DNA of 64,000 nt, taken from NCBI GenBank assembly GCA_965222155.1, contig CBDCTH010000012.1, positions 1,120,001 through 1,184,000 of the forward strand, written 5' to 3'. A program made the translations under genes and the position numbers. Position 1 is the stretch's first letter. Every line of letters starts with the position of its first letter. Below are positions 111-22,692 of this stretch, piece by piece. The notes beneath the pieces are model-generated. The model saw only the letters and a list, made by a program, of their open reading frames with translations, did no database searches and was not told the origin of the DNA. The stretch comes from Gammaproteobacteria bacterium (GTDB lineage Bacteria > Pseudomonadota > Gammaproteobacteria > Eutrophobiales > Eutrophobiaceae).

Positions 111-536
111 ATGAAAGTTACTGTAGAGCAGAACAATATCCACTGGGAAGCAGCCCATGCGCTGGTACAGGCCGCAGTAAAGCAGGCTGATGAAATGAAC
201 GTAACAGTCAACGTCGCGGTGGTGGACAGCGGCGGTCACCTGGCTGCTTTCCTGCGCATGCCGGGTTCGGCGTTCCACTCCGTTGACGTGGCCATAAGTA
301 AGGCTTACACGGCTATGAGTTTCGGTATGCCTACGTCACAGTGGCAGAATGTCATCGATAATTTGTCTGTTCCGTGTCAAACGGGCCTGCCGTCGGTGGA
401 TCGGTTGATGACTTGCGGCGGGGGTGTCCCCATAGAAGTCGATGGGCTTCGCATCGGCGCCATCGGCGTCTCCGGGGCGAGTGAAAAACAGGATGAGGAA
501 ATTGCAGAAAATGCGCTGAAAATTCTGCATGAATGA
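111..536 (+). CDS. GlcG/HbpS (DUF336) heme-binding family protein
   Basis: Motifs VAVVDSGGHL, AISKAYTA and GGGVPI..G..IGAIGVSG; this family often lies upstream of dmpC/xylG in meta-cleavage operons. Confidence 0.88.
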   Translation: MKVTVEQNNIHWEAAHALVQAAVKQADEMNVTVNVAVVDSGGHLAAFLRMPGSAFHSVDVAISKAYTAMSFGMPTSQWQNVIDNLSVPCQTGLPSVDRLMTCGGGVPIEVDGLRIGAIGVSGASEKQDEEIAENALKILHE

Positions 537-540
537 TATT

Positions 541-615
541 TGGGGTCAGAGTAAAAATACAGTCAGTTTGGCAAGTGGTAGTAGCTTGTTGTTGAGTATT
601 TTTACTCTGACCCCA
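541..615. repeat. 20-bp perfect inverted repeat (REP-like)
   Basis: TGGGGTCAGAGTAAAAATAC (541-560) and GTATTTTTACTCTGACCCCA (596-615). Confidence 0.85.
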
Positions 616-648
616 TGGACTGCAAGTCTGGTATGAGGGTTCGGGTTA

Positions 649-2139
649 ATGCACGCAAAAGTAGAACAAGTCTTTTCAGGTACGCCGTTTTGTCATTTCG
701 TTAACGGCGAATTTATCGGATCTGCCGGCGGCAGGATGTTCGATACGCTTAACCCGGCAACGGGTGAGGCCTATGCACAGGTGCATGAAGCGGGCAGGGA
801 AGAGGTCGACGCGGCAGTCAACGCTGCCCGTGCCGCCTTGACGGGATCCTGGGGCGCAATGACGGTACAGCAACGGGTCGCGTTATTGTATGACCTGGCC
901 GACGGGATTAATGCCCGGTTCGATGATTTTCTTGAAGCGGAATGCCTTGATACCGGCAAACCCTGGTCATTGGCCAGGCACGTCGATATTCCACGGGGCG
1001 CGGCCAACTTCAAAATCTTTGCGGATATCATCAAGAACGTCCCCGCAGAATCCTTCATGATGGATACCCCGGACGGGGCCGGGGCGCTGAATTATGCGTT
1101 GCGCGTACCCAAGGGTGTTATCGGTGTCATCTGTCCCTGGAATCTGCCCTTGCTGCTGATGACCTGGAAAGTCGGGCCGGCACTGGCCTGCGGTAACACC
1201 GTCGTTGTCAAACCGTCGGAGGAAACCCCCGCGACGGCAACCCTGCTGGGCGAGGTGATGAATTCAGTAGGTATACCCGCGGGAGTATACAACGTAGTGC
1301 ATGGTTTCGGTCCCGATTCCGCCGGTCAGTTTCTGACTGAGCATCCGGGCGTGGACGCCATTACGTTTACCGGTGAAACGGTCACGGGCACCCAAATCAT
1401 GAAGGCCGCGGCAGTCGGCCTGCGCGACGTATCGTTTGAACTGGGCGGAAAGAACGCGGGAGTGGTGTTTGCCGACTGTGATATGGATAAGGCCATAGAG
1501 GGGACTACGCGCTCTGCGTTTGCCAATTGCGGCCAGGTTTGCCTGGGAACGGAAAGGGTTTACGTTGAACGGCCTGTGTTCGCCGAATTCGTGCAACGGC
1601 TCAAACTGGGTGCGGAAAACCTGGCGCCGGGACGACCTGAACTGGCAACGACCACCCTGGGACCCATGATCAGCCGGCAGCAAAGGGAAAAGGTGCTGTC
1701 CTATTATCGAAAGGCCAGGGAGGAGGGGGCAGAAATTATTACCGGCGGCGCTGTTCCGCAAGTGCCTGATGAACTTGGAGGCGGTTTCTGGGTGGAACCG
1801 ACTATCTGGACGGGTTTGCCCGAGTCAGCGCCGGTTATTCGAGAGGAGATCTTCGGTCCCTGCTGTCATATTCAGCCCTTTGATGAAGAATCGGAGGTAA
1901 TCAGCATGGCTAACGATACGCCTTACGGGCTGGCAACGGCAATATGGACGGGTGACGCGGCGCGTGCACATCGGGTTGCCGCTGCCATTGAGGTTGGTAT
2001 TACCTGGGTTAATTGCTGGTTCCTGCGGGATCTCAGGACACCTTTCGGCGGCTCCAAACAATCGGGCATCGGCCGGGAAGGTGGTGTACACTCGCTGGAG
2101 TTCTATACTGAAATGCGCAACGTGTGTTTGAAATTGTAA
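649..2139 (+). CDS. dmpC: 2-hydroxymuconic semialdehyde dehydrogenase
   Basis: ALDH motifs PWNLPLLLMTWKVGPALACGN, FTGETVTG, ELGGKNA, GQVC and EEIFGP, plus the DmpC/XylG-typical DIPRGAANF and WFLRDLRTPFGGSKQSG. Confidence 0.93.
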   Translation: MHAKVEQVFSGTPFCHFVNGEFIGSAGGRMFDTLNPATGEAYAQVHEAGREEVDAAVNAARAALTGSWGAMTVQQRVALLYDLADGINARFDDFLEAECLDTGKPWSLARHVDIPRGAANFKIFADIIKNVPAESFMMDTPDGAGALNYALRVPKGVIGVICPWNLPLLLMTWKVGPALACGNTVVVKPSEETPATATLLGEVMNSVGIPAGVYNVVHGFGPDSAGQFLTEHPGVDAITFTGETVTGTQIMKAAAVGLRDVSFELGGKNAGVVFADCDMDKAIEGTTRSAFANCGQVCLGTERVYVERPVFAEFVQRLKLGAENLAPGRPELATTTLGPMISRQQREKVLSYYRKAREEGAEIITGGAVPQVPDELGGGFWVEPTIWTGLPESAPVIREEIFGPCCHIQPFDEESEVISMANDTPYGLATAIWTGDAARAHRVAAAIEVGITWVNCWFLRDLRTPFGGSKQSGIGREGGVHSLEFYTEMRNVCLKL

Positions 2140-2457: not shown

Positions 2458-3249
2458 ATGACTTTTGCTGCAGACAAAATACTATCCTACGGTAATACAC
2501 TCTACGATTGTCTACGCAAGCGCAATACTATCGAGCCGTTAACGGAGCAGGAGGCTGATATTACCATTGAGGACGCCTATCGTATTGCACTGCAATTGTT
2601 GCAGCGACGACTGGGCGATGGTGAAAAAATCATCGGTAAAAAAATCGGCGCTACCAGCAAGGCCGTACAAAATATGTTGAAGGTGAACCAGCCGGATTTT
2701 GGTTACCTGACTGACCGCATGGTCTATAACAACGGCGATGAAATGCCCATCAGTTCGGTACTAATCCAGCCCAAGGCAGAAGGAGAAATAGCGTTTATCC
2801 TGAAACACGACCTGGAAGGGCCGGGCGTGACCAATGCCGCCGTCCTGCGGGCGACGGAATGCGTGATGCCTTGTTTTGAAATAGTCGATTCACGCATCAA
2901 GGATTGGAAAATCAAGATCCAGGATACCATTGCCGATAATGCCTCCTGTGGTCTGTTCATGCTGGGTGACCGGGCCGTTGACCCGCGGCGCGTTGACCTG
3001 GTGACCTGCGGTATGGTGCATTCAAAGAACGGCGAAGTCATTGCCACGGGCGCCGGCGCCGCGGCCCTGGGATCGCCGGTTAACTGTGTTGCCTGGCTGG
3101 CGAATACCCTGGGCGAATTCGGCATCAAGCTGGAGGCCGGTGAGGTGATCCTGTCGGGTTCCCTGGTTCCCCTGCATCCGATAGTGCCGGGAGACTCGAT
3201 GAATTTATCCATTGGCGCTATCGGCAATGCATCAGTCCGGTTTACATAA
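2458..3249 (+). CDS. dmpE: 2-oxopent-4-enoate (2-hydroxypenta-2,4-dienoate) hydratase
   Basis: FAH-fold motifs GKKIGATSKAVQ..PDFG, EGEIAF, EIVDSRIKDWKIKIQDTIADNASCG and VILSGSL. Confidence 0.9.
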   Translation: MTFAADKILSYGNTLYDCLRKRNTIEPLTEQEADITIEDAYRIALQLLQRRLGDGEKIIGKKIGATSKAVQNMLKVNQPDFGYLTDRMVYNNGDEMPISSVLIQPKAEGEIAFILKHDLEGPGVTNAAVLRATECVMPCFEIVDSRIKDWKIKIQDTIADNASCGLFMLGDRAVDPRRVDLVTCGMVHSKNGEVIATGAGAAALGSPVNCVAWLANTLGEFGIKLEAGEVILSGSLVPLHPIVPGDSMNLSIGAIGNASVRFT

Positions 3250-3256
3250 TTGATTT

Positions 3257-3514: not shown

Positions 3515-3540
3515 TGATATTAGATTAAGAGGTTGATGAT

Positions 3541-4449
3541 ATGAAAGTAAATGCTGCCCTGGTCGGTTCCGGGAATATCGGAACGGACCTGATGATGAAG
3601 GCGTTACGCAGTGACTGGATCAATCCGGTCTGGATGGTGGGGATAGATCCTGCCTCGGACGGTTTGGCGAAGGCGAGAGCCAGCGGTTTGAGGACCACCC
3701 ACGCGGGGGTGGATGATCTGCTTGAGCATATCGATGCTGACGGCATCAAGATTGCTTTTGATGCGACTTCCGCTTATATCCATCTGGAAAACTCCAGGAA
3801 ACTGGAGGCGCGCGGCGTGCTGGTTATCGACCTGACGCCGGCAGCCATCGGCCCTTACTGTGTGCCGCCCGTTAACCTGCAGGAGCACGTAGGCAGACAG
3901 GAGACCAATGTGAACATGGTCAGTTGCGGCGGGCAGGCTACAATCCCCATGGTCGCGGCGGTGAGCAGGGTGCAACCGGTGAAATATGCTGAGATCGTTG
4001 CCACGGTGGCGTCAAAGTCCGCAGGGCCAGGCACGCGCAAAAACATCGACGAATTCACCCGCACCACGGCTGACGGCATAGAACAGGTCGGCGGCGCCAA
4101 ACAAGGCAAGGCGATCATCATCCTCAACCCGGCGGAACCCCCCATGATTATGCGCGATACCATCCATTGCCTGACGGAAGACACTCCAGATGAGGACGCG
4201 ATCACAAAATCCGTCCATGACATGATCAGGGAAGTGCAAAGATACGTGCCGGGATATAAATTGAAAAACGGACCGGTGTTCGACGGCAACCGTGTGTCCA
4301 TTTTCATGGAAGTGAAAGGTCTGGGGGATTATCTGCCGGAATATGCGGGTAACCTGGACATTATGACTGCTGCCGCGTTACGCACCGGTGAGATGTTTGC
4401 GGAGGAAATCATTAATGGCGAGTTGCAGTTGGAAGCTGTTAACGCCTGA
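3541..4449 (+). CDS. dmpF: Acetaldehyde dehydrogenase (acylating)
   Basis: [50 protein letters not shown] and YAGNLDIMT. Confidence 0.95.
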
Positions 4450-4461
4450 GGAGATGAAGCC

Positions 4462-5529
4462 ATGAACCTGACAGGTAAAAAAGTCAAACTACATGATATG
4501 TGTCTGCGTGACGGGATGCACGCCAAAGGCCACCAGATCAGCATAGAGCAAATGATAAGCGTTGCTTCGGCGCTCGACGATGCGGGCATTCACCTTATCG
4601 AGGTGACCCACGGTGACGGACTGGGCGGCGCTTCCATCAATTACGGTTTCCCCGCCAGTTCGGATGAGGAATATCTGCGGGCAGTCATCCCGCGTATGAA
4701 AAATGCAAAAATCTCGGCGTTATTGTTGCCCGGGATAGGCACCGTGGATCATTTGAACATGGCACGGGATTGCGGTGTTCATACCATTCGCGTCGCTACC
4801 CACTGCACGGAAGCGGATGTGTCCGAACAACACATCAGTTCCGCCCGAAAGCTTGACCTGGATACGGTCGGTTTCCTGATGATGGCGCACATGGTGGAGC
4901 CGCAACATCTGCTTGCCCAAGCCAGGTTGATGGAATCTTACGGAGCCAATTGTATCTATTGCACCGATTCAGCCGGCTACATGTTGCCGGATGATGTCAC
5001 GGCCCGTATCGGGGCCTTGCGCGAAGGGTTGAATGAAGACACGGAGATTGGTTTTCATGGGCACCATAATATGGCTATGGGTATTGCCAACTCATTGGCA
5101 GCCGTCGAGGCCGGCGCGGATCGGATTGATGGTTCTGCGGCGGGTTTAGGCGCCGGCGCCGGCAACACCCCCCTGGAAGTATTCAACGCGGTGCTGGACC
5201 GGATGGGCGTTAAAACCGGCGTGGACGTATACAAGTTGATGAACGTGGCGGAGGACAATGTAGTGCCCATGATGGACCAGCAGATCCGGGTTGACCGTGA
5301 TTCACTGATTATGGGCTATGCGGGCGTGTATTCCTCTTTTCTCCTGCACGCTAAACGTGTGGGGAAAAAATACAATCTTCCTTCCGGGGATATCCTGGTT
5401 GAACTGGGGAAGATGAAAACTATCGGCGGCCAGGAAGACATGATAGAAGACGTTGCGCTGAACATGGTACGCGCACGCCGGGAATTAAAGCCTGCCCCTG
5501 CAGGTCGTAAGCAGGGGGTGGCGCAATGA
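4462..5529 (+). CDS. dmpG: 4-hydroxy-2-oxovalerate aldolase
   Basis: [47 protein letters not shown] and [10 protein letters not shown]. Confidence 0.95.
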
Positions 5530-6314
5530 CGCTGGACCAGGCCACGATCAGCCAACTGGCAGAGCACCTGGAAAATGCCGAGTTGAACAGGCAGCCGGTG
5601 ACGAAAATCACCGATGCTCACCCGGAACTTGACTGGGATGACGCCTATTCCATCCAGTATGAGATCCGCCGTCGTAAAACAGAGCGCGGTGGTAAAATCG
5701 TCGGTCTGAAAATGGGTTTGACCTCCCAGGCAAAAATGAAACAGATGGGCGTGGCTACGCCGGTGTATGGGTTTTTGTCTGATTACGGCAGTTATGCCGA
5801 CGGCGCAGAAATCGATACGGGGGCGTTTATCCATCCCCGGGTGGAAGCGGAAGTGGCCGTTATGACCAGGACAGAGTTGGCCGGGCCGGGTTGTCATATC
5901 GGCCAGGTGTTGCCGGCCATAGATTTCATTACCGGGGCAGTGGAGATCATAGATTCCCGTTATGAAAATTTTCGGTTTGACCTGAAAAGTGTCATTGCCG
6001 ATAATACTTCAGCCGCAGGTTTTGTCTGCGGCAGCGTGATTCGGGATGCGGCTGAGGTGGACCTGCCGACCCTTGGGGTTGTAATGGAGAAAAACGGCGA
6101 AGTAGTGGAAACCGGCGCAGGCGCTGCAGTACTGGGGCATCCCGCGTCCAGCGTGGCCATGCTGGCAAACATGCTGGCGGCGCGCGGAGAAGTCATACCT
6201 GCCGGGACGTTTATCATGACCGGCGGCATAACGGCAGCCGTTGCAGTGGGGAAGGGCGATGCTGTTAATGTGCGTTTTCAGGGCCTGGGCAAGGTCAGTT
6301 TCCGAATGATCTGA
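5526..6314 (+). CDS. dmpH: 4-oxalocrotonate decarboxylase
   Basis: [24 protein letters not shown] and [21 protein letters not shown]; ATGA overlap with the aldolase. Confidence 0.92.
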
Positions 6315-6365: not shown

Positions 6366-7355
6366 TTGTTTAATAACATAACCAAGAACCTGGCCAGGGT
6401 TGCACATTGTTGCCTGTTGGCTGTTATCTTTATGCTGTCTTCCGGCTGTGAAGCGCCGCTGGTATTGGACGAAGTGGAAACAGCCGAACGGTCTCCGCTA
6501 CGCAGGACGGATAATTTTCAGGCAGTCGGTTCCTTCGGGCAGAATATTGTTGCGGTGGGAGCAAGCGGAGTCATCCTGACGTCAGGGGACAGCGGGGCCA
6601 CCTGGCAACGGCAGCAAATTCCTTCCTGGCCTTCCTTCCTGGATATCACCAGTTGCAGTGACGGCCTGTTCGCCGCATTGGCCTTTGAAGGCGAAGTGTG
6701 GCTTTCCAGCGACGCCGGCCTGACCTGGAGCCAGAGTAAACTCACTACCGAGGAGGCGCCGCAGTCTATCCAGTGCGACCCCGCAGATAATTTGTGGGTG
6801 GTAGGCAGTTTTTCCACCGTATCGATCAGCCGGGATGGCGCTGCGACCTGGGAGGTGTCCTCCCGGGATGAAGACATGATTTACACGGATATCCAGTTTT
6901 TTGATGAGCGGACCGCTTACATCGCCGGTGAATTCGGTTCCCTGCTGAAAACCAGGGATGCCGGAGCCACCTGGGAATCAATGCCCATCATGCCCGATGA
7001 GTTTTATCCGCAGAGCATGTATTTTGAAGATCTGGACAAGGGCTGGATTGCCGGCCTGGGCGGTGTCGTCCTTGAAACGTCTGACGGCGGACAGAGCTGG
7101 CAGATACAGGCTACCGGCAGCCTGGTCACCTTGTACACCCTGGCTAAATCCAACGGTAATGTATTCGTCGTCGGTGGTGAAGGCACCATATTCCGTTATG
7201 ACGGAGGAAAGTGGGCGCCGGTCGATCACGGCCAACCGTTCCGCCTGTACCTGCGCGGGATACAGCCCCTGGCTGGTCACCGCTTGATCGTCAGCGGTCC
7301 CGGGGGCGTATTGCACGTCTTTTCAATTGAAGAACTACTGAACAGTGATAATTAA
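6366..7355 (+). CDS. YCF48/BNR-repeat beta-propeller lipoprotein
   Basis: Lipobox-like LSSGC after a hydrophobic signal; repeated S/T-x-D-G/A-G-x-T/S-W Asp-box motifs. Confidence 0.85.
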   Translation: MFNNITKNLARVAHCCLLAVIFMLSSGCEAPLVLDEVETAERSPLRRTDNFQAVGSFGQNIVAVGASGVILTSGDSGATWQRQQIPSWPSFLDITSCSDGLFAALAFEGEVWLSSDAGLTWSQSKLTTEEAPQSIQCDPADNLWVVGSFSTVSISRDGAATWEVSSRDEDMIYTDIQFFDERTAYIAGEFGSLLKTRDAGATWESMPIMPDEFYPQSMYFEDLDKGWIAGLGGVVLETSDGGQSWQIQATGSLVTLYTLAKSNGNVFVVGGEGTIFRYDGGKWAPVDHGQPFRLYLRGIQPLAGHRLIVSGPGGVLHVFSIEELLNSDN

Positions 7356-9757
7356 TGAAATTTAATACCAGTCAGATTTTCCCTACTTTTGGTAATTTCC
7401 TGTTCAACAACAGAAAATTCGTACTGGTTGTGATCTTTTTGATTACCGCCATGTTTGCCTGGAATATACCCGCTGTACGCATGCTGTCTGATTTTGCCGA
7501 TCTGTTACCCCAGGAGCACCCCTATATACAGCTTCATAACAGCATCCGCGATACCTTCGGGGGCGCCAATATCATCGTTATGGCCATGGAAGTGGAGGAG
7601 GGTACGATATTCACCAATGATTCCCTGGACCGGGTTCACCGTATCACCCAGAAGCTGGACAGCGTGTCCAACATCAACCACAATCTGGTAAGCAGCCTGA
7701 CCCATCGCAATACCCGGAAAATCTTCCTGACACCGGACGGGACGATACGTTCACAGACCTATTACGATCCGCACCATGATGAATATACGGAAGAACAACT
7801 GGCGAAAATCCAGCGGGACGTGGTGGCCAGTACCAACGTATACGGCTTGCTGGTATCACCGGACATGAAGTCGGCGCTGATTAAGGGTACCCTGAATGAA
7901 GGCCAACTCGATTACGGCAAGGTATTCGATGAAATCCAGGCTATTCGGGCATCGGAAATTGCGCCCGGCGTAAAAATCCATGCAACCGGCCATCCTGTGC
8001 TGGTGGGTTGGGTGGATTCCTACAGTGGCGATATCCTGCTTATCTTTTTCTACACCATACTGATCGTCCTGGCGATCCTGATCTTCTATTCGCGCCGACT
8101 GTACGGCATCCTGTTACCGTTGGTAGGCATGGTATTGACCAGTATCTGGGGAGTGGGGTTCATGGGGGTGTTCGGTTATAACCTGGATCCGTTAATGCTG
8201 GTTGTACCGTTTCTTATCTCGGCCCGGTCCATGTCCCACGGTATCCAGAAGCTGGAGCGTTACTTTCTTGAACTGTCCCGCACCCATGAGAAGGTGTCGG
8301 CTGCCAGGAACACCTTTAATGCGCTGTTCAGACCCGGCGCGCTGGCGATCGTTGCGGACGCTTCGGCCCTGTACCTCATCGGGCTGGGGTCTGTGCCCAT
8401 CAATGACAAAATGGCCATTTACGCGTCTTTCTGGGCGGTATGTATGGTCGCCACGGTATTGATAGCGATCCCCATGCTGCTGGCGGAACTTCCCAGGCCG
8501 AAGGAAGTGGCCGTCAAGCATACCATGGCGCGGGTGATCTTTCCCAAGTTTGCCCGGGTCGTCGGGACCCCGGGACGCTCCAAAGCGGTGTTAATCACCT
8601 GTCTGGTTATTACCCTCTGCGCAACCTATTTCAGTTCCTGGGTGCAGATCGGCGAGCCGGAACCGGGTTCGCCGCTGCTCTACCGGGATCACGATTTCAA
8701 TATCTCATCTACGGCCATAAACGACCGCTTCCCGGGCGCCGAGGAATTGTTTATCATCGCCCGCGCCGATGAGAACGGCGGCTTGAAGAAACCTGAAATC
8801 ATGAAGGCCCTGGCGGACTTCCAGAACCACATGATGCTGGACCCGCATCTTGGCGGGGTAAAAGGGGTGAATAACCTGCTCACGCAGGTGAATCAAATGA
8901 CCCGCAACAACGACCCGCGCTGGGCGGTCATTCCCTCTATCGACCAGAATATCGGCGGTCTGTTGTTCATGTTCATGATGTCGGCGCCGACTCAGGGCGC
9001 ATTACAGGAATATATCGACACCGATGACCGGCTTGCCAATATGGTTTTTTACTATAAGGACCATACCGGTGAGACTATCCGCCGCGCCATTTACATGGCC
9101 AAGGAATGGATAGACAGCAAAGGCGCGCAGGTTGAAGGTTTGCATATTGACCTGGCCGGCGGGCCCGTCGGGGTGACCGCAGCAATTAATGAAGAGGCCT
9201 ATGATACCAACGTCATCGTCGTGCCGGCGGTGCTGATTCTTATCCTGTGTTTTACCCTGTGGTTTTACGGTTCGTTTCACTCCGGGTTCATGATGCTGGT
9301 ATCCATGACGTTCGCCACCACGCTGACTTATGCCTGTATGGGATTATTGAATATGGGGTTGAACGTCAATACGGTACCGATGATTGCCGTGGGGATCGGG
9401 CTGGGGGTGGATTACGCCATTTACATGATGGACCGGATCAAGGAGGAAATGCATGTGGCCGAGGATCTCCAGGACGCCATCCGGCGCGCGGTCACCACCA
9501 CCGGCGTCGCCATTGCCTTGACCGCCACGACACTGGTCGGCGGCATTATCATGTGGGTATTTATATCTGAACTGCGCTTCCAGGCAGATGCGGCGCGCCT
9601 CTTGATCATCATGCTGGTCATGAACATGGCGGCCGCCATGTTCCTGGTGCCGGCATGGGTGAACATCTTCAAGCCGAAATTCATTATGCAGGCGGCTGAA
9701 GAGCGCTGGGCAAAAGGGGAAGGTTCGACGATCGATGAAATTGAAGTTCTGGATTAA
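7355..9757 (+). CDS. RND/MMPL-family membrane transporter
   Basis: Two repeats of one TM + large periplasmic domain + ~5 TM; IGIGLGVDYAIY-type motif (VGIGLGVDYAIY); start overlaps the upstream stop. Confidence 0.9.
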   Translation: MKFNTSQIFPTFGNFLFNNRKFVLVVIFLITAMFAWNIPAVRMLSDFADLLPQEHPYIQLHNSIRDTFGGANIIVMAMEVEEGTIFTNDSLDRVHRITQKLDSVSNINHNLVSSLTHRNTRKIFLTPDGTIRSQTYYDPHHDEYTEEQLAKIQRDVVASTNVYGLLVSPDMKSALIKGTLNEGQLDYGKVFDEIQAIRASEIAPGVKIHATGHPVLVGWVDSYSGDILLIFFYTILIVLAILIFYSRRLYGILLPLVGMVLTSIWGVGFMGVFGYNLDPLMLVVPFLISARSMSHGIQKLERYFLELSRTHEKVSAARNTFNALFRPGALAIVADASALYLIGLGSVPINDKMAIYASFWAVCMVATVLIAIPMLLAELPRPKEVAVKHTMARVIFPKFARVVGTPGRSKAVLITCLVITLCATYFSSWVQIGEPEPGSPLLYRDHDFNISSTAINDRFPGAEELFIIARADENGGLKKPEIMKALADFQNHMMLDPHLGGVKGVNNLLTQVNQMTRNNDPRWAVIPSIDQNIGGLLFMFMMSAPTQGALQEYIDTDDRLANMVFYYKDHTGETIRRAIYMAKEWIDSKGAQVEGLHIDLAGGPVGVTAAINEEAYDTNVIVVPAVLILILCFTLWFYGSFHSGFMMLVSMTFATTLTYACMGLLNMGLNVNTVPMIAVGIGLGVDYAIYMMDRIKEEMHVAEDLQDAIRRAVTTTGVAIALTATTLVGGIIMWVFISELRFQADAARLLIIMLVMNMAAAMFLVPAWVNIFKPKFIMQAAEERWAKGEGSTIDEIEVLD

Positions 9758-14491: not shown

Positions 14492-16741
14492 ATGCGACTT
14501 TTTTCTCATAAAAACCGGGCAATGCATCTTGGCCCTTTTGCCCTTGAAAGGCTCGCCAGGAGGGATTCAGGACCTGACTATCCAGTCCTCGGGGAACAAC
14601 GCCCTCTGGAAACGACTACGCCGGACAACCCCGTATCCATGGCTAATGCGTTCCGCGATTATATCGACCTGTTCGACCGGATGCGCCTGGGTGATCCTGC
14701 TCCCAGACAGGCGCCGATCCCGTCCGACCCACAGGCGCGCGCAGACCACCTGAAAGCCGCGTGTTATAACCTGGACGTCAGTATGGCGGCAACCTGCGCC
14801 ATACCCGAACAGGCGCTGCTGGCAGAGCCCATCATTAATGAATCCCTGGCGCAGGCGCAGGAAAAAGAATACCTGGCCGGTTCTGCCGCCAATGTCGTGG
14901 CAGAGACCAGCGTCAAGGAAGGCCGGAAGGCATGGCAGCGCTCCCTGGAGGACGCGGCTAAGGAGTTCAAGCATGGTTACGCGCTGGTTTTACTGGTGGA
15001 ATACACCAGGGAACCGGATCCCGATGTTGAGAGTGAAGCCTGGCTGGTTGGAACGCAAGCACAACGGGCCGCGGTCAGGGCCTCTGAAGCGGCTGCCGTC
15101 ATGGTGAATTACATCCGATTTCTGGGTTTTGAAGCAAGATTACATACGCCGACGGCAAGCGATTTTGATCTCGATTACCTGTTACTCTGCAGTGGCCTGG
15201 GTGAGGTCAACGGCAGCAACGGCAACAGCACTGTCAGCAATCCCTACCTGGGCGATCAATTCGGCCTGGCCGTGATTTCAACGACCATGGAGCTTGCAGC
15301 AGATAAGCCGTTGGCTGAAAGGGGGCCAATGGCATCCTTGAAATCCCATGGTCCGGGCTGGTGGCTGGGCCTGGGTGGCGCGCGACCGGGTTACAAGGGT
15401 CGGCTGTACAAAAACAGGCCGTTTTACCTGGGACCTTACCCTATGGAAAAATTGAAGCCTCAGGAAACCACCACCACCCTGATTGACGCACCGAATGTGC
15501 CGCGTATCCCCAAGCGGCATGATATGTTCCTCAGGGCGGCAATGGGCGACCTGGGGGAAAAGCCGCAAAAGGAATTGGAAAACTTTCGCATGATCACCAA
15601 GTCGCCCTACGGCCACGCCATGGTGCCGCCGTTGGGCGCAATGGTCCCGCTCCAGTACGGCAAGGAGGCGGACCGGATCATGGAAGGGACTGACGATCCG
15701 AAAAAAAACGCTGAGGCGGTAAAAGCCGCCCTGTATTACCTGGGCGCGGATATGGTGGGTATCTGTAAGTTACCGGACTATGCCTGGTATTCCCATGATC
15801 TGGATGGAGCGGAGATAAAGCCGTACCACAAATACGGGATCGCCATCCTGGTGGACCAGGGGTACGAAACCATGGAAGGGGCCAGCGGTGATGACTGGAT
15901 CAGCGGTGCGCAAAGTATGCGCGCTTACCTGCGCGCGCAACTGATTGGGGGCATTGTCGGCAGCCATATTCGTTCCCTGGGTTACTCTGCCCGTGGCCAC
16001 AGCGTGATGGACCAGGACGTGCTGCATATACCGATTATACTGGGAGCCGGTCTGGGCGAGTTGAGCCGGATTGGTGAACTGGTATTAAACCCCTACGTAG
16101 GGCCGCGCTTTAAATCGGGCATCATCACGACCGACCTGCCGTTGTTGCCGGATAAGCCCATAGATTTCGGATTGCAGGATTTTTGTGAGAAATGCACCAA
16201 GTGCGCCAGGGAATGTCCGTGCCAGGCGATCCCTTACGGTGACAAGATCATGTTCAACGGCTATGAAATGTGGAAGCCGGACGTGGAAAAGTGTGCCCGC
16301 TACCGTATCACCAACTCCGCCGGCGCGTTGTGCGGCCGTTGCATGAAAACCTGCCCCTGGAATATTGAAGGGGTATTGGCCGAGAGGCCTTTCCTGTGGG
16401 CAGCCATGAACCTGCCTTTTACCCGGAAGTGGATCGCCAGACTGGATGACATAGTCGGCAACGGTTTGATCAATCCGGTGAAAAAATGGTGGTGGGACCT
16501 GGATTCGGACGAGCAAGGCAATATTATCCCGGCCAGGCGAACCAACAGACGCCAGTTTTCGACACGCACGAATATGGATCCGGAAAAGCAAACCATGGGT
16601 TGTTATCCGGCAGATATAGCAGCGCCGCCGGTCGCGGAAAAACCAGTTATCCTGCACAGGAAGATAGCCGTACAGAGATACAAGAGCGCAGAGAGCCCGG
16701 ACGAATACAAGGCCCGAAAAATGATGAAAGAGGTTGGCTGA
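14492..16741 (+). CDS. rdhA: Catabolic (non-respiratory) cobalamin-dependent reductive dehalogenase, NpRdhA/BhbA-like
   Basis: N-terminus MRLFSHKNRAMHLGPFALERL resembles NpRdhA as I recall it; internal duplication (LGPFALERL/LGPYPMEKL; SGLGE..NPYLG/AGLGELSRIG..NPYVGPRFK); two Fe-S motifs CEKCTKCARECP and C..CGRCMKTCP; no Tat signal and no rdhB. Confidence 0.9.
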   Translation: MRLFSHKNRAMHLGPFALERLARRDSGPDYPVLGEQRPLETTTPDNPVSMANAFRDYIDLFDRMRLGDPAPRQAPIPSDPQARADHLKAACYNLDVSMAATCAIPEQALLAEPIINESLAQAQEKEYLAGSAANVVAETSVKEGRKAWQRSLEDAAKEFKHGYALVLLVEYTREPDPDVESEAWLVGTQAQRAAVRASEAAAVMVNYIRFLGFEARLHTPTASDFDLDYLLLCSGLGEVNGSNGNSTVSNPYLGDQFGLAVISTTMELAADKPLAERGPMASLKSHGPGWWLGLGGARPGYKGRLYKNRPFYLGPYPMEKLKPQETTTTLIDAPNVPRIPKRHDMFLRAAMGDLGEKPQKELENFRMITKSPYGHAMVPPLGAMVPLQYGKEADRIMEGTDDPKKNAEAVKAALYYLGADMVGICKLPDYAWYSHDLDGAEIKPYHKYGIAILVDQGYETMEGASGDDWISGAQSMRAYLRAQLIGGIVGSHIRSLGYSARGHSVMDQDVLHIPIILGAGLGELSRIGELVLNPYVGPRFKSGIITTDLPLLPDKPIDFGLQDFCEKCTKCARECPCQAIPYGDKIMFNGYEMWKPDVEKCARYRITNSAGALCGRCMKTCPWNIEGVLAERPFLWAAMNLPFTRKWIARLDDIVGNGLINPVKKWWWDLDSDEQGNIIPARRTNRRQFSTRTNMDPEKQTMGCYPADIAAPPVAEKPVILHRKIAVQRYKSAESPDEYKARKMMKEVG

Positions 16742-18320: not shown

Positions 18321-18329
18321 ACCGTTAAA

Positions 18330-18689
18330 GCCACAGAGGACACAGAGGACACAGAGGATACAGAGAACACAGAGAACACAGAGGATACAGAGGATACAGA
18401 GAACACAGAGAACACAGAGAACACAGAGGATACAGAGGATACAGAGAACACAGAGGACACAGAGTTAGCCAGAAGACGTCATTCCGGGCTTGGCCCGGAA
18501 TCCAGTAAACAAATATACCTTATAAATAATGAATAATTTATTGACTGGATTCTGGCATTCGCCAGAATGACAGGAATGGCGGGAATGACAGGAATGGCGG
18601 GAATGGCAGGAATGGCGAGAATGGCAGGAATGGCGAGAATGGCAGGAATGGCAGAAATCCGTTTCTGTGCTCTCTGTGTCCTCTGTGGC
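18330..18689. repeat. Composite palindromic miniature element, copy 4, with expanded 9-mer microsatellites
   Basis: About 15 tandem CACAGAG(G/A)A / TACAGAG(G/A)A 9-mers, an inner GTCATTCCGGGCTTGGCCCGGAATCCAG..CTGGATTCTGGCATTCGCCAGAATGAC hairpin pair, about 10 GAATG(G/A)C(A/G)G 9-mers, then CTCTGTGTCCTCTGTGGC. Confidence 0.9.
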
Positions 18690-18707
18690 ATAAAAAATAT
18701 ACGTCTT

Positions 18708-20018
18708 ATGCAAATAATCATGTCATTGCAAACCCTGACTCACATATTGTTTTTCTACTTACTGGCAAGCTCCGCCGTGGTAAGGGCAGACGTTATCGAG
18801 CAGTCGTTTGCCGTTGACCATGAGAAAACCGCATCGCTCAATCCCGCGCCCGGTACGGTTATTACAAAAGAAAACGTTGCTTCGTTCAGTACTATTCTCG
18901 CACCGAAACTTGCGGAGTTGATCAATGATGAATTTTTGACGATCACCACGGGCGAGGCTCTATCCTTTGCCACGCACCCTGCCTACCTGGAGGCCACCAG
19001 GCACTACCTGGACACAACCGAGCTTGGGGAAGAACCGGGAATTATTCGCAACTACGTGGCCGGCAGGCCGTTCCCCCGGGAACCACAGCTTGATGATCCC
19101 AGGGCAGGAGACAAGCTGGCCTGGAACCTGCGTTATACCTATATATACGACAGTGGAGAACTCTCAAGCTTTTATTGGCAGTATAAGAGTATCCTCAGAG
19201 ACAAGCTGGAAAGGGAGTTATCTTTCTATGCAAGCTCCATGAAGTTCATGCACAGGCACGTACAGGAACCCATCCCCTCTATGCCTAACAATCCTTCACA
19301 GGTCTATCATGGGCTTTACCTGAAGGTATTGGCGCCCCCGGATTTGCGCGGGACACAATTACTGGTGCAACGCCTGGAAGATGACACCAAGCAGGAGCAA
19401 ACCTGGCTTTACCTTTCCAGCCACCGCCGAGTCCGGCGCCTGGCGTCCGGTCAGACAACGGACGCGTTTCTGGGCAGTGATATCATGATAGAGGATTTTC
19501 TCGGTTATAACGGTCGTATCATGGACCAGAAATGGACTTACAAGGGGGTTACCTGGGTATTGTTGCCGTTCTTTAATCATGATCAGCAACCTCTGGTAGA
19601 TGCAGGGCAGCAATTGGACGGTTTTCAATTTATCGGTTTCCATGGCAAGGGCGGCTGTTTTCCGAATGTCACCTGGCACCTGCGTAAGGCCTATATCCTG
19701 GAAGCAGAGCCGTACTGGAAACAGCATCCTTTGTCGAAACGGCGTTATTACCTGGATGCCCAGACGATGCTGCCGGTTTACGGGCATATCTTCGACAGGC
19801 CCGGCAACCTGTGGAAAGTCGCCATCGCCGCTTACTCTCACCCGGACCGGCATCACCCATCCAACCTGGGTTCGGGCACGCCTATCATCGATGCGGTCTC
19901 CATGATTGACATCCAGGCCCTGCACTGCACGACCCTCCAATTCAAGGCAGTACTACCGGAGAAAGCATTTCGCGAGACGGATTTCACTGTGCAGGCTTTA
20001 CGCGCCAAGGGGCGCTGA
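18708..20018 (+). CDS. DUF1329-family periplasmic protein (copy 2)
   Basis: Paralog of 12121-13428 (RRVRRLASGQTTDAFLGSDIMIEDFLGYN); the track start at 18567 lies inside the repeat, so the true start is likely ATG 18708 or 18720, just before the signal peptide. Confidence 0.82.
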   Translation: MQIIMSLQTLTHILFFYLLASSAVVRADVIEQSFAVDHEKTASLNPAPGTVITKENVASFSTILAPKLAELINDEFLTITTGEALSFATHPAYLEATRHYLDTTELGEEPGIIRNYVAGRPFPREPQLDDPRAGDKLAWNLRYTYIYDSGELSSFYWQYKSILRDKLERELSFYASSMKFMHRHVQEPIPSMPNNPSQVYHGLYLKVLAPPDLRGTQLLVQRLEDDTKQEQTWLYLSSHRRVRRLASGQTTDAFLGSDIMIEDFLGYNGRIMDQKWTYKGVTWVLLPFFNHDQQPLVDAGQQLDGFQFIGFHGKGGCFPNVTWHLRKAYILEAEPYWKQHPLSKRRYYLDAQTMLPVYGHIFDRPGNLWKVAIAAYSHPDRHHPSNLGSGTPIIDAVSMIDIQALHCTTLQFKAVLPEKAFRETDFTVQALRAKGR

Positions 20019-20022
20019 GCGG

Positions 20023-20340
20023 GTGCACAAGATAACGCTGGTATGCGCCGGGGAACGGGCTGATTTTAATTGTGCAGATAAGGCGTCGATACTGAAGTCT
20101 GCCTATGCGGCCGGATTTCAGTTGGCCTGTGGCTGCCTGCAGGGTCGTTGCAGGACGTGTCGTGCGCGCTTGCTGAAAGGCAGTGTAAGATCGCTTCGCC
20201 CTCTATCAAGATATGCTACTATTGACCCGGCAAACCTTGAGGATGGAAGCGTGCTGCTGTGTTCTGTTACGCCACTTGAGGATATAGATATTGAGCCTCA
20301 CTCAAAGTGGGAACCTGGACGAAACTGTAACACGGAGTAA
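20023..20340 (+). CDS. Plant-type [2Fe-2S] ferredoxin
   Basis: C-x4-C-x2-C (CLQGRCRTC) plus a distal LLC; in-frame GTG at 20023, just after the DUF1329 stop. Confidence 0.8.
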   Translation: MHKITLVCAGERADFNCADKASILKSAYAAGFQLACGCLQGRCRTCRARLLKGSVRSLRPLSRYATIDPANLEDGSVLLCSVTPLEDIDIEPHSKWEPGRNCNTE

Positions 20341-20403
20341 CAGGATGCGCAGGACAGATGATATATGTCCGGTAATCCTGTATATCCTGTCCATCCATGT
20401 AAA
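20340..20403. repeat. CAGGAT-family 9-mer inverted repeat element (short)
   Basis: ACAGGATGCGCAGGAC...ATCCTGTATATCCTGTCCATCCATGTAAA, matching the 51861-52044 family. Confidence 0.65.
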
Positions 20404-20427
20404 AAATACGATATAAGGGGACTAATC

Positions 20428-21297
20428 ATGCGTGATTTTACTATCGATAACCTGACGGAAATTGTGCTGGAGGAATACGGTTCCAAAACAGAAGATCCCA
20501 GGTTCAGACAAATTATCACTTCATTAATCAAACACGTGCACGCCTTTGTCAAAGACGTGGAACTGACGGAAGAGGAATGGTTCAAGGCAATCATGTTTTT
20601 AACCAGGACCGGCCAGACCTGCGATGACAAGCGCCAGGAGTTTATCCTGTTATCGGACGTGCTGGGTGTGTCCATGCTGGTAGATGCGATCAACCACCCC
20701 AAGTCGGGCAGGGGGACGGAATCCACGGTACTGGGACCGTTTTACGTAGCGGGCGCGCCGGAATATGAAAACGGCGCCAGCATCATAAAACAGCAATATG
20801 CCGCTCAAGTCGCATTGGTACAGGGGAAAGTGACGGACCCCGACGGCGCCTCCATAGCCGGCGCAAAACTGGATGTGTGGCAGACTGCCGCCAATGGCTA
20901 TTATGATGTACAGGATCAGTCCATGCCCGAAAATAATATGCGCGGTATTTTCACTACAGATACAGAGGGTAACTATACCTTTGTGACGGAAAAGCCGTTG
21001 TCCTACTCCATACCAACGGATGGCCCCGTCGGCGATCTGCTCAGGACCAGCCGACGCCACGGCATGAGGCCCGCCCATATCCATTTCGTCGTGTCGGCGG
21101 ACGGCTATGAGCCGTTGACGACCCATGTATTTTCTGATGGCGATGAATACCTGGACTCGGACGCGGTGTTTGCCACCAAGAGTTCACTGATCGGCTATTA
21201 CACGGAGTCCGATGACGCTGATCTGGCGACCCGCTATAATCTTTCCGTACCGTTCAGCCACCTGCAATTTGATATGGGTCTGATGCCGACCCGATAA
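20428..21297 (+). CDS. Intradiol ring-cleavage dioxygenase (hydroxyquinol/catechol 1,2-dioxygenase family)
   Basis: RQEFILLSDVLGVS, TVLGPFY, GYYDVQ, YSIPTDGPVG and RPAHIHF (Fe ligands Y,Y,H,H); ATG 20428 follows AAGGGG. Confidence 0.9.
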   Translation: MRDFTIDNLTEIVLEEYGSKTEDPRFRQIITSLIKHVHAFVKDVELTEEEWFKAIMFLTRTGQTCDDKRQEFILLSDVLGVSMLVDAINHPKSGRGTESTVLGPFYVAGAPEYENGASIIKQQYAAQVALVQGKVTDPDGASIAGAKLDVWQTAANGYYDVQDQSMPENNMRGIFTTDTEGNYTFVTEKPLSYSIPTDGPVGDLLRTSRRHGMRPAHIHFVVSADGYEPLTTHVFSDGDEYLDSDAVFATKSSLIGYYTESDDADLATRYNLSVPFSHLQFDMGLMPTR

Positions 21298-21309
21298 AAA
21301 GGGGAGATT

Positions 21310-21463
21310 TATCCGCAGATTACGCAGATTTACGCAGATTAAAATCAATCTTTAGAGGAACAGATAAAATCCACTGTATATGCAACTATATTTACGCTAA
21401 TAATCACACAGTTTTTTTATCTGTTGTATTCTTATCTGCGAAAATCTGCGTAATCTGCGGATA
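21310..21463. repeat. CGCAGAT-family 9-mer inverted repeat element
   Basis: TATCCGCAGATTACGCAGATTTACGCAGAT ... ATCTGCGAAAATCTGCGTAATCTGCGGATA around an AT-rich core. Confidence 0.85.
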
Positions 21464-21468
21464 CTCCT

Positions 21469-22692
21469 ATGTATGACCTGTTGAAGGATCTGCGCATCGT
21501 TGAAGGCTCTGCCTTTGTCGCTGCGCCGCTGGGGGGCATGACCCTGGCGCAACTGGGGGCGGATGTCATACGCTTTGACCCTATCGGTGGTGGGCTGGAC
21601 TATCGGCGCTGGCCGGTGACGAGTGCGGGACAAAGTCTGTACTGGGCGGGTCTGAACAAGGGCAAGCGCTCTATTGCCATCGATTTACGCTCCCCCGAAG
21701 GAAAAGAACTCGCCGTTTCTCTGATAACCGGGGACGCCCCCAACGCGGGGATTTTCCTGACCAACTTCCCGCAGTCGGACTGGCTGGATTATACGACGCT
21801 GAAGAAGCGGCGTAATGACTTGATCATGGTACAGGTGCAGGGAAATCCGGATGGGAGCAGCGCGGTCGACTATACGATCAATTCCGCAACGGGTATTCCC
21901 TATGCGACAGGACCGGCAGATGAGCCGGCGCCGGTCAACCACATGTTTCCGGCCTGGGATGCGCTGACAGGCATCAATGCAGCGCTGGCAGTGGTAGTCG
22001 CAGAGCGCCAACGGCGACTTGCCGGCGCCGGCCAACTGATCAGGCTGGCGCTGTCGGATATTGCGTTTTCCATGGTGGGCAACCTGGGACACATCGCCGA
22101 AGCGCAAATCAATGGTGCAGAACGTCAAGCTATCGGTAACCGGTTGTACGGTGCGTTCGGCCACAATTTTAAAACCAGGGACGGACATGAGATCATGCTG
22201 GTGGCCATCACCCGCAGACAATGGCGGAACCTGGTCACGGCATCTCAACTTGAGCAGGAGTTTAAAAAGATAGAAACCGAACGTGGATTGAAACTCGACC
22301 AGGAAGGTGATCGTTACCAGGCTACGGATGCCCTTATCGGTTTATTGGAACCGTGGTGTGCGCGGCATGACCTTGCGGAGTTGGCTTCGATATTCGATTC
22401 CCACGGTGTGTGCTGGGGACCGTACCAGACTTTTTCCGAACTGGTAAATCATGATCCGCGCTGCTCTGAGAAGAATCCCGTTTTTGCAACGGTTCGCCAA
22501 CCCGGTATAGGTGAATACCTGATGCCCGGTTCACCTCTGCGCTTTGAGGCGGAACCGCGCCAACCGGTCACGCCGGCGCCGCAACTCGGCGCCGATACCG
22601 ATGAGATACTCTCCACGATCCTGGGTTTGAGCAGCGCCGCCATCGGCGATCTGCACGACCGGGGAATCGTCGCCGGCATTACAGCTGATTAG
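21469..22692 (+). CDS. mct: Family III CoA transferase, mesaconyl-CoA C1-C4 CoA transferase (2-methylfumaryl-CoA isomerase)-like
   Basis: LRIVEGSAFVAAPLGGMTLAQLGADVIRFDPIGGGLDYRRWP and SLYWAGLNKGKRS match Mct as I recall it; the family assignment is firm, the substrate is inferred. Confidence 0.75.
   Translation: MYDLLKDLRIVEGSAFVAAPLGGMTLAQLGADVIRFDPIGGGLDYRRWPVTSAGQSLYWAGLNKGKRSIAIDLRSPEGKELAVSLITGDAPNAGIFLTNFPQSDWLDYTTLKKRRNDLIMVQVQGNPDGSSAVDYTINSATGIPYATGPADEPAPVNHMFPAWDALTGINAALAVVVAERQRRLAGAGQLIRLALSDIAFSMVGNLGHIAEAQINGAERQAIGNRLYGAFGHNFKTRDGHEIMLVAITRRQWRNLVTASQLEQEFKKIETERGLKLDQEGDRYQATDALIGLLEPWCARHDLAELASIFDSHGVCWGPYQTFSELVNHDPRCSEKNPVFATVRQPGIGEYLMPGSPLRFEAEPRQPVTPAPQLGADTDEILSTILGLSSAAIGDLHDRGIVAGITAD

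Follow-up and report, generated by a model that had tools for sequence, protein, structure and literature searches.

A candidate catabolic island for ortho-halogenated phenols around an NpRdhA-type reductive dehalogenase in an uncultured gammaproteobacterial genus

What does a B12-type reductive dehalogenase do among genes for the breakdown of aromatic rings? The question is raised by a 64,000-nt stretch of DNA (the window) from a Gammaproteobacteria bacterium of the Eutrophobiaceae (GenBank GCA_965222155.1, contig CBDCTH010000012.1; G000:C12:1120001-1184000 in our own numbering), in which the gene for such an enzyme, RdhA, lies within a long run of catabolic and envelope genes. Gene identities were assigned by profile searches against Pfam and NCBIfam and by sequence searches against the Protein Data Bank (PDB), all on translations of the open reading frames (ORFs). 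An earlier note on this DNA had proposed that the cluster dehalogenates and then mineralizes halogenated aromatics. Four lines of evidence—the family to which RdhA belongs, the active-site residues it keeps, synteny across the genus, and the phenol genes found beside its sister clade—make the degradation of halogenated phenols the best reading of the locus, in keeping with that proposal. The region is best explained as a catabolic island, inherited vertically, that would serve the use of ortho-halogenated phenolics (most likely brominated ones) in an aerobic, uncultured gammaproteobacterial genus. More specifically, we think it rather probable that the island serves the ortho-debromination of bromophenols or bromohydroquinones, followed by interchangeable hydroxylation and ring-cleavage cassettes.

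The reductive dehalogenase and its neighborhood

To which branch of the reductive dehalogenases does RdhA belong? The 749-residue protein matches NpRdhA (PDB 4RAS) over its whole length with an E value of 1.5e-172, as against 2.1e-26 for the respiratory enzyme PceA and 0.019 for QueG. It passes the NCBIfam model TIGR02486 (199.1 bits; cut-off 160.35) and fails the QueG model (26 bits; cut-off 200), and Pfam at 1e-5 returns only weak Fer4 models. Both [4Fe-4S] cysteine motifs are intact (C565/C568/C571/C575 and C601/C614/C617/C621) and align identically with those of NpRdhA. Residues 1-80 contain no twin-arginine (Tat) motif, and the 749 residues include no reductase domain. There is also no rdhB-like gene: the interval 13428-14492 has no plus-strand ORF of at least 35 aa beyond the known genes, repeat-derived frames excepted, and the gene after RdhA begins 1 nt past its stop codon. 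These results support the placement of RdhA among the catabolic, cytoplasmic reductive dehalogenases of NpRdhA/BhbA type rather than with QueG or the respiratory enzymes, and they agree with the earlier note, which had described a catabolic RdhA free of Tat signal, rdhB, and fused reductase and had named QueG as the alternative to be checked.

Residues S475, Y479, K541, and R605 align with NpRdhA S422, Y426, K488, and R552, of which Y426 is the proton donor of that enzyme and the other three bind the substrate hydroxyl group (PMC7565698), and NpRdhA M423, F291, and F310 are likewise conserved. Because the catalytic residues of NpRdhA are kept, the same chemistry—removal of a halogen ortho to a phenolic hydroxyl group—is very probable, while the preferred substituents may differ; RdhA is predicted to bind cobalamin and to dehalogenate ortho-halophenols. 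The pocket and its entrance differ from those of NpRdhA at five residues (F290M, K307L, P311R, A419G, and N452V), one of which, K307, salt-bridges a benzoate group at the pocket entrance of NpRdhA (PMC7565698).

The RdhA family is large, with 3925 proteins at E<=1e-30 among 7999 candidates, and 548 of 578 candidate stretches from a species-level genome collection encode a relative. Fused forms occur among relatives at 60-64% identity (P0063, P0081, and L063). The genome itself carries a second full-length NpRdhA-type paralogue at 42-48% identity (L132; G000:C12:201544-203746), which is conserved across the genus and lies between genes for an acyl-CoA ligase, a DUF485 protein, and a sodium:solute symporter on one side and a restriction-modification pair and paaABCD on the other. 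Three shorter reductive dehalogenase-like ORFs with 32-38% identity to the RdhA core (C12:1002308-1002985, C4:462255-462914, and C12:372318-372701) and a probable QueG (C12:3143707) were also seen.

What surrounds RdhA? The gene belongs to a run of 19 consecutive plus-strand genes that extends from 0.8 kb before the window to position 22692, with short or overlapping junctions in the ORF list. The earlier note had described one co-directional run, and every gene it listed was recovered on the plus strand where it had placed it, by ORF, Pfam, and NCBIfam evidence. The run begins upstream of the window with a glutathione S-transferase (GST) gene, and a divergent GntR/FCD regulator lies further upstream. 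The features, in window coordinates unless given otherwise, are as follows.

C12:1119228 to window position 19 (start 772 nt before the window; 1..19 is the 3' end), plus strand: GST, 263 aa, first gene of the run (Pfam GST_N/GST_C)
111..536, plus strand: HbpS/DUF336-like protein, 141 aa (PF03928, 3.4e-39)
649..2139, plus strand: dmpC, 2-hydroxymuconic semialdehyde dehydrogenase (TIGR03216, 859.7 bits; cut-off 693)
2458..3249, plus strand: dmpE, 2-oxopent-4-enoate hydratase (TIGR03220, 426.4 bits; cut-off 408.8)
3541..4449, plus strand: dmpF, acetylating acetaldehyde dehydrogenase (TIGR03215, 468.5 bits; cut-off 282)
4462..5529, plus strand: dmpG, 4-hydroxy-2-oxovalerate aldolase (TIGR03217, 544.2 bits; cut-off 286)
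5526..6314, plus strand: dmpH, 2-oxo-3-hexenedioate (4-oxalocrotonate) decarboxylase (TIGR03218, 426.2 bits; cut-off 350.55)
6366..7355, plus strand: BNR/Ycf48-like periplasmic protein, AmeC-like (PF14870, 1.1e-18)
7355..9757, plus strand: HAE3-family RND/MMPL inner-membrane transporter, AmeD-like (PF03176, 1.6e-24; TIGR00921 is the best NCBIfam match, below cut-off)
9886..12090, plus strand: DUF1302 outer-membrane protein, AmeA-like (PF06980, 3.2e-30)
12121..13428, plus strand: DUF1329/LolA-like periplasmic protein, AmeB-like (PF07044, 3.8e-64; PF17131)
13719..14312, plus strand: DsbA-fold, HCCA-isomerase/kappa-GST-like protein, 197 aa (PF01323, 6.6e-33)
14492..16741, plus strand: RdhA, NpRdhA-type reductive dehalogenase, 749 aa (PDB 4RAS; TIGR02486 above cut-off)
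16743 (ATG) or 16734 (TTG)..18320, plus strand: HpaB/SgcC-type two-component flavin monooxygenase, oxygenase subunit (PF11794, PF03241)
18567..20018, plus strand: second DUF1329 paralogue (PF07044, 7.4e-57)
20023 (GTG; 19906 in the ORF caller)..20340, plus strand: small plant-type/XylT-like [2Fe-2S] ferredoxin, 105 aa (PF00111)
20365..21297, plus strand: intradiol dioxygenase, hydroxyquinol 1,2-dioxygenase-like (PF00775, PF04444)
21469..22692, plus strand: family III CoA-transferase (PF02515; TIGR04253 below cut-off)

How widely is this arrangement shared? A full-length RdhA orthologue at 73-96% identity occurs in 18 of 22 other genomes of the genus, the close relatives being metagenome-assembled genomes (MAGs). 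Two of the remaining four hold an incomplete copy, cut by a contig end in G006 and split into two fragments in G002, and no orthologue was found in G010 or G021 (77% complete). Sixteen other families of the class, each represented by one genome, yielded none. The G002 fragments (G002:C1:2841273-2842165) cover residues 1-150 and 581-745 and look like the result of an internal deletion in one species. Gene order was compared across about 26 kb in each of 10 genomes of the genus, and in all 10 the order GST-dmpC-E-F-G-H-BNR-RND-DUF1302-DUF1329-DsbA-like-RdhA is the same, so the synteny on which the earlier note had made its proposal depend is present. The HbpS-like gene is found in 8 of these 10 clusters, as are the HpaB-type gene, the second DUF1329 gene, and the dioxygenase. 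The DsbA-like gene stands immediately upstream of RdhA in all 10, and also in all 8 genus-type loci of the wider comparison.

Downstream of RdhA the content varies. G009 (L044/L045 and L051) carries a duplicated HpaB-type gene and three tandem copies of the hydroxyquinol-type dioxygenase. G005 has no HpaB/dioxygenase pair and encodes in its place, directly after RdhA, a TetR regulator, an FAD monooxygenase, a PcpA-like dioxygenase that matches 2,6-dichloro-p-hydroquinone 1,2-dioxygenase (PDB 4HUZ) at 1.6e-82, and a maleylacetate-reductase-like iron-containing alcohol dehydrogenase.

Does the association extend beyond the genus? Of the 548 genome matches, the best 80 were examined. In a tree of 33 RdhA sequences (mafft and FastTree; L069, L074, L075, and L081 are not included, the one tblastn high-scoring segment pair of each being either shorter than 90% of the query or interrupted by a stop), the genus forms a clade (support 1.0), and its sister clade (support 0.98) comprises 8 gammaproteobacterial sequences. 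In four of these 8 (L057, L060, L064, and L066), genes for DmpR and a multicomponent phenol hydroxylase lie no more than 10 kb from RdhA, as they do in the frameshifted L074, outside the tree; catechol 2,3-dioxygenase (C23O) is also present in the L057, L064, L066, and L074 loci. The L064 locus goes on with dmpC-dmpH-BNR-RND, L058 reads BNR-RND-DUF1302-DUF1329-GST-GST-RdhA, a PcpA-like gene lies 3-4 kb upstream of RdhA in L057 and L066, and PcpA-like, maleylacetate-reductase-like, and DsbA-like genes adjoin RdhA in L075. The recurrent partners thus comprise phenol hydroxylase with C23O, a PcpA-like enzyme with maleylacetate reductase, and an HpaB-superfamily oxygenase with hydroxyquinol dioxygenase, all of which act on phenol, hydroquinone, or hydroxyquinol. 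A tblastn screen of distant RdhAs from Acidimicrobiia and Rhodospirillales (41-50% identity) found none of these neighbors, which indicates that the association belongs to this gammaproteobacterial RdhA clade and not to the whole family.

Ring-cleavage, envelope, and possible helper genes

Which oxygenase is coupled to RdhA? The best PDB matches of the HpaB-type protein are SgcC (4OO2, 1.8e-187) and Escherichia coli HpaB (1e-175), whereas TcpA, TftD, and HadA match at only 1e-25 to 1e-27. Where the earlier note had written HpaB/PheA1-type, the subgroup is that of the E. coli HpaB/SgcC ortho-hydroxylases, not the TcpA/TftD/HadA type. The protein misses the 4-hydroxyphenylacetate 3-monooxygenase equivalog TIGR02310 (670 bits; cut-off 885.2). 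R113, Y117, and H155 of E. coli HpaB all have identical counterparts in it, and the S210-A211-Q212 loop, which we take to help bind the substrate carboxylate, is replaced by an SgcC-like P-I-P. SgcC is a 3-chloro-beta-tyrosine hydroxylase (PMC12442393). The gene is the sole HpaB homologue in the genome. Two start codons are candidates, ATG 16743, preceded by AGAGG 9 nt upstream and lying 1 nt past the RdhA stop, and TTG 16734; the ATG is the more plausible, so that the RdhA and HpaB-type genes appear tightly coupled without truly overlapping. The earlier note had described the two as overlapping; such an overlap, of 8 nt, would need the TTG start.

The intradiol dioxygenase matches PnpC (3N9T, 2.9e-81), 6-chlorohydroxyquinol dioxygenase (8R2X, 1.2e-75), and 1TMX (4e-65), with catechol 1,2-dioxygenases at 4e-44 or weaker, and it scores below the NCBIfam equivalog cut-offs for catechol and chlorocatechol 1,2-dioxygenases. 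The intradiol enzyme announced by the earlier note is thus present and resembles hydroxyquinol rather than catechol or chlorocatechol 1,2-dioxygenases. The three enzyme genes of the G005 cassette (FAD monooxygenase, PcpA-like dioxygenase, and maleylacetate-reductase-like protein) also occur together elsewhere in the present genome, at C12:2750683-2754701.

Is the small ferredoxin the electron donor of RdhA? The protein has a CX4CX2C motif and a probable GTG start at 20023. Its closest resemblance is to a free ferredoxin encoded after the fused RdhA of L063, in an Amphritea MAG (26% identity, 4e-9); the similarity to the DmpQ-type ferredoxin of its own genome is marginal. The ferredoxin noted before does exist, but its presence in only 3 of 10 genomes of the genus means that it cannot be an obligate donor. 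The RdhA of L063 is a self-sufficient fusion of 1087 aa (DmmA-like_N and Fer2), preceded by a 2-oxoacid:ferredoxin oxidoreductase pair and followed by the free 2Fe-2S ferredoxin and an AcrAB-type pump.

Both modes of ring cleavage had been read into the cluster. The intradiol enzyme and the lower meta-cleavage genes are there, and all five of dmpC/E/F/G/H exceed their NCBIfam equivalog cut-offs, but Pfam and NCBIfam scans of the cluster and of the 20 kb that precede it returned no extradiol dioxygenase. The only TIGR03211 (C23O) match above cut-off in the genome, at C12:1692469-1693377, adjoins dmpLMNOP and a ferredoxin gene (C12:1692-1698 kb) about 0.55 Mb from the cluster, and no lower-pathway genes lie beside it. 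Because dmpF and dmpG are single-copy and confined to the window cluster, and dmpLMNOP and C23O occur only at the other site, the classical dmp pathway is shared out between two loci that complement each other. The cluster contains no dmpD-type hydrolase. At C4:241.6-248 kb the hpaI/G/E/D/F genes form a complete set, with no hpaB among them.

What might the envelope genes carry, and in which direction? The four co-encoded parts (DUF1302, DUF1329/LolA-like, BNR/COG4447, and HAE3 RND) have the exact composition of AmeABCD, and the RND transporter is 90-97% identical across the genus. In Castellaniella defragrans 65Phen, AmeABCD is read as an efflux or tolerance system, deletion of which lowers monoterpene tolerance and increases dye influx; ameB is also required for growth on monoterpenes (both PMC6394551). 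Pseudomonas homologues of the envelope genes are reported to be required on Tween 20 and fatty esters (bioRxiv 10.1101/2020.07.04.188060), and the phenol hydroxylase cluster of Zoogloea described in PMC7012976 also contains DUF1302 and DUF1329 genes. With the literature divided between efflux or tolerance and the use of Tween 20 and fatty esters, uptake is only one possible direction for this module, and its designation as an uptake module in the earlier note does not fit the sole characterized relative, presented in PMC6394551 as an efflux and tolerance system. The second DUF1329 protein is 41% identical to the first, and relatives align across 86-93% of its ORF.

Three further proteins accompany RdhA. 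The best PDB match of the GST is LigF (1.7e-24); it matches no NCBIfam equivalog, reaching 21.5 bits against the beta-etherase cut-off of 440, and orthologues at 62-64% identity lie near RdhA in L058 and L063. The DsbA-like protein matches NahD (2IMD) at only 8.7e-17, within a shared DsbA fold family, with no NCBIfam equivalog match and no naphthalene-type neighbors; a copy 53% identical stands beside RdhA in L075. An HbpS-like homologue is found directly upstream of RdhA in L064 and L074. The HbpS/DUF336 family includes the PduO C-terminal domain, which binds haem and is required for B12-dependent propanediol use (PMC4923194), and the formaldehyde sensor EfgA (PMC8153426). We speculate that the HbpS-like protein acts in cofactor handling or in an aldehyde-related role, and the GST and DsbA-like protein could cover a missing tautomerase step or a glutathione-dependent dehalogenation.

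Where does the island end? Membership of the CoA-transferase is uncertain; it adjoins the dioxygenase in 5 of 10 genomes of the genus, and the housekeeping gene typA comes next, at 22723. The genes between 27 and 64 kb have no relation to the island (an MFS transporter, mobile elements, toxin-antitoxin genes, guaAB, xseA, and lipAB). Among them, at 36491-48010, is a group of mobile and defence-type genes, namely those for a HigB-like toxin, an integrase, two DDE transposases, a RES-domain protein, and two AAA_14/DUF4143 ATPases; GC content falls to 0.41 at 48-50 kb, and a 1345-aa minus-strand ORF (59947-63984) has no Pfam match at 1e-8.

Within the run, a composite element resembling a miniature inverted-repeat transposable element (MITE) occupies five intergenic spacers (22-83, 2121-2436, 3253-3523, 13441-13510, and 18317-18689). 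Its ends are inverted (GCCACAGAGGACACAGAG ... CTCTGTGTCCTCTGTGGC) and enclose runs of the 9-nt tandem units CACAGAGRA and GGAATGRCR. The spacers concerned are far shorter in relatives, as in G022, where dmpC abuts dmpE. The elements generate spurious ORF starts, including the N terminus of the second DUF1329 protein, the listed start of which falls in the repeat at 18317-18689, so that the true start probably lies after ~18690. A promoter and terminator scan of 4000-23000 gave counts equal to or barely above those of shuffled controls, with no clear operon boundaries, and an Rfam scan of the whole window at gathering thresholds returned no matches, hence no cobalamin riboswitch. The 20 kb upstream (L001) encode a corrinoid-binding protein with an MttB-family methyltransferase, two dimethylglycine/sarcosine-dehydrogenase-like proteins, and TonB-dependent receptors, and a second MttB gene with a RACo-type corrinoid activator adjoins the dmpLMNOP-C23O locus; corrinoids clearly serve several pathways in the source organism.

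A possible pathway and its rivals

How might these parts work together? The AmeABCD-type envelope machine (DUF1302, DUF1329, BNR, and HAE3 RND) would handle a hydrophobic substrate at the cell envelope, in either direction. In the cytoplasm, an oxygen-tolerant B12/[4Fe-4S] RdhA would remove halogens ortho to the phenolic hydroxyl group in the manner of NpRdhA, drawing its electrons from a ferredoxin system whose genes have no fixed place in the cluster. NpRdhA converts 2,6-dibromophenol to 2-bromophenol and requires ferredoxin and its reductase, and the established chlorophenol route combines a two-component flavin monooxygenase with hydroxyquinol dioxygenase and maleylacetate reductase, both as described in PMC6922536. 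Para-substituted phenols or hydroquinones could then undergo HpaB/SgcC-type hydroxylation and hydroxyquinol-type intradiol cleavage to maleylacetate. Fully debrominated phenol would pass to the dmpLMNOP phenol hydroxylase and C23O encoded 0.55 Mb away, and the resulting meta-cleavage semialdehyde would be taken to pyruvate and acetyl-CoA by the cluster's own dmpCEFGH. The GST and the DsbA/kappa-GST-like protein may be conserved helpers at some step.

A bolder form of this proposal, which we hold to be doubtful when taken as a whole, is a modular "reduce first, then oxidize" system with which uncultured, aerobic Gammaproteobacteria of marine type would mineralize natural organobromines. A B12 RdhA would take the place of GST-type (PcpC/LinD) or oxygenolytic dehalogenation, and a swappable cassette slot behind it would be filled by an HpaB/SgcC-type enzyme and hydroxyquinol dioxygenase, by an FAD monooxygenase, PcpA-like enzyme, and maleylacetate reductase, or by dmp phenol hydroxylase and C23O. 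The GST, DsbA-like, and HbpS-like proteins would be dedicated helpers, which might replace the DmpI tautomerase or handle the corrinoid or haem cofactor, as proposed for the PduO C-terminal domain, and the AmeABCD-like module would import hydrophobic phenols.

Several observations weigh against the main reading of the locus as a debromination island. The five changed pocket residues mean that the substrate of RdhA may not be among those of NpRdhA. The cluster encodes no flavin reductase, the genome's only PF01613 gene being 359 kb away, and no maleylacetate reductase. The genome, 100% complete by marker genes, has no match to PF01361, the family of the 4-oxalocrotonate tautomerase DmpI (at 60 residues a family that can be missed), which leaves the dehydrogenative meta branch without one canonical step. 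The HpaB/dioxygenase pair is missing in 2 of 10 genomes of the genus and the ferredoxin in 7 of 10. The MITE-like repeats break up several spacers, so that cotranscription of the entire run is not assured, and the only characterized AmeABCD system is read, in the account cited above, as an exporter.

Could RdhA act on acids rather than phenols? Bromotyrosine-derived 3-bromo- or 3,5-dibromo-4-hydroxyphenylacetate might be debrominated by RdhA, hydroxylated by the HpaB-type enzyme to homoprotocatechuate, and passed to the hpa meta pathway on C4. The genome's lone HpaB homologue does adjoin RdhA, the hpaI/G/E/D/F set lacks exactly that gene, and 3-bromo-4-hydroxyphenylacetic acid is turned over roughly on a par with the best substrate of JtRdhA by that related enzyme (PMC10463259). 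Yet the HpaB-type enzyme falls well below the 4-hydroxyphenylacetate hydroxylase cut-off, the downstream dioxygenase is of hydroxyquinol and not homoprotocatechuate type, and the sister-clade contexts are phenol hydroxylase and PcpA-like genes. The residue that pairs with a benzoate group in NpRdhA, K307, is leucine here, and the loop presumed to bind the carboxylate in HpaB has been replaced, all of which leaves this route possible but unlikely. We consider it less likely still that the locus serves tolerance rather than carbon gain, with RdhA and GSTs disarming bromophenols, the AmeABCD-like pump expelling them, and the dmp genes being mere neighbors engaged in ordinary phenol catabolism. 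The Castellaniella deletion phenotype (PMC6394551) and the two glutathione-type enzymes that flank the module fit such a role, as does L058, where both GSTs and the RND set accompany RdhA with no ring-cleavage genes among the Pfam matches (E<=1e-8) of the scanned ORFs. This explanation has to contend with a GST-dmpCEFGH-RND set-DsbA-like-RdhA order fixed in all 10 genomes, with the repeated joining of RdhA to ring-hydroxylating or ring-cleaving genes in independent lineages, and with a lower meta pathway found nowhere else in the genome.

Two other explanations have little probability. Chance or historical juxtaposition, in which the neighbors share no pathway, would be in line with the very uneven conservation of individual genes within the genus, the repeat elements in several spacers, and the lack of a common promoter or terminator signal above shuffled controls; it is very improbable, given the single strand with its short or overlapping junctions, the 10/10 synteny down to 73% RdhA identity, and the recurrence of the same functional classes beside sister-clade RdhAs. 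Hardly credible at all is the idea, also raised in the earlier note, that a NahD-like isomerase points to the degradation of bicyclic or diaryl-ether organobromines such as hydroxylated polybrominated diphenyl ethers. It draws on the resemblance of the DsbA-fold protein to NahD and of the GST to the beta-etherase LigF, but both similarities are weak, and the cluster contains no ring-hydroxylating dioxygenase, hydratase-aldolase, or other naphthalene-type gene. The RdhA pocket is, moreover, NpRdhA-like and, judged from the published descriptions of 4RAS and 6ZXU, probably of single-ring size. The degradation of ortho-brominated phenols and hydroquinones thus stays our preferred reading.

Relation to known systems

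Why does the locus matter? To our knowledge, the structures of oxygen-tolerant catabolic RdhAs have been well studied, while little is yet known of the substrates they use in the cell, of their electron donors, and of their metabolic setting. That one RdhA clade keeps turning up beside genes for the cleavage of phenol, hydroquinone, and hydroxyquinol rings, beside GSTs, and beside an AmeABCD-type transporter narrows the candidates for a natural substrate to phenols and hydroquinones with ortho bromines. An unsolved family of transporters is thereby tied to one defined class of substrates, and the locus and its relatives provide concrete sets of enzymes for joint expression. If the proposal is true, an entire lineage without cultured members would be living on natural organobromines as a carbon source under oxic conditions, a role that, as far as we know, has so far been demonstrated mainly for anaerobic debrominators. 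A literature search, the coverage of which excluded most subscription journals, found no description of an RdhA joined to phenol hydroxylase, to meta-cleavage, or to a sponge or gammaproteobacterial context, and the bromoxynil cluster is the only aerobic RdhA catabolic cluster described in the text of PMC10463259.

RdhA aligns over its full length, N-terminal extension included, with NpRdhA of Nitratireductor pacificus pht-3B (4RAS and 6ZXU), and it shares with that enzyme both cysteine motifs and the absence of Tat signal, RdhB, and fused reductase. It differs in the five pocket and entrance residues and in its neighbors, which here are catabolic and transport genes with one small, nonconserved ferredoxin. 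The dmp phenol meta-cleavage operon is known in its classical form from Pseudomonas sp. CF600. The present genome has dmpC/E/F/G/H above cut-offs together with dmpLMNOP, ferredoxin, and C23O, but they are divided between two distant loci, with no dmpI match in the genome, no dmpD in the cluster, and the lower half joined to RdhA, GST, and RND genes. Pentachlorophenol degradation includes PcpC and PcpA steps, and it is G005 that recalls it, with its PcpA-like dioxygenase and maleylacetate-reductase-like gene.

Like BhbA, from the bromoxynil cluster of Comamonas sp. 7D-2, and JtRdhA, the enzyme belongs to the catabolic clade and sits inside an aerobic aromatic-degradation cluster (PMC10463259); unlike them, it has no C-terminal PDR-like reductase, and its downstream route appears to be of phenol/hydroxyquinol type, whereas theirs is a 4-hydroxybenzoate/protocatechuate route. 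The envelope set shares with AmeABCD of Castellaniella defragrans 65Phen its four components and its position within a catabolic island for a hydrophobic substrate (PMC6394551), and differs in gene order, in an extra DUF1329 paralogue, and in its linkage to candidate halophenol rather than monoterpene genes. The pairing of an HpaB-superfamily oxygenase with a hydroxyquinol-type intradiol dioxygenase is that of the Tcp/Had/Tft/Cph chlorophenol routes (PMC6922536), except that the oxygenase here is of the HpaB/SgcC subgroup, the removal of halogens is assigned mainly to the B12 enzyme and not to the oxygenase or a GST, and the reductase partners and maleylacetate reductase are encoded outside the cluster. 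Nothing in the locus is categorically new, and RdhA is a new member of a well-studied family; what appears to be new is a B12 RdhA fixed to a lower meta pathway, GSTs, an AmeABCD-type set, and a swappable slot for hydroxylation and ring cleavage.

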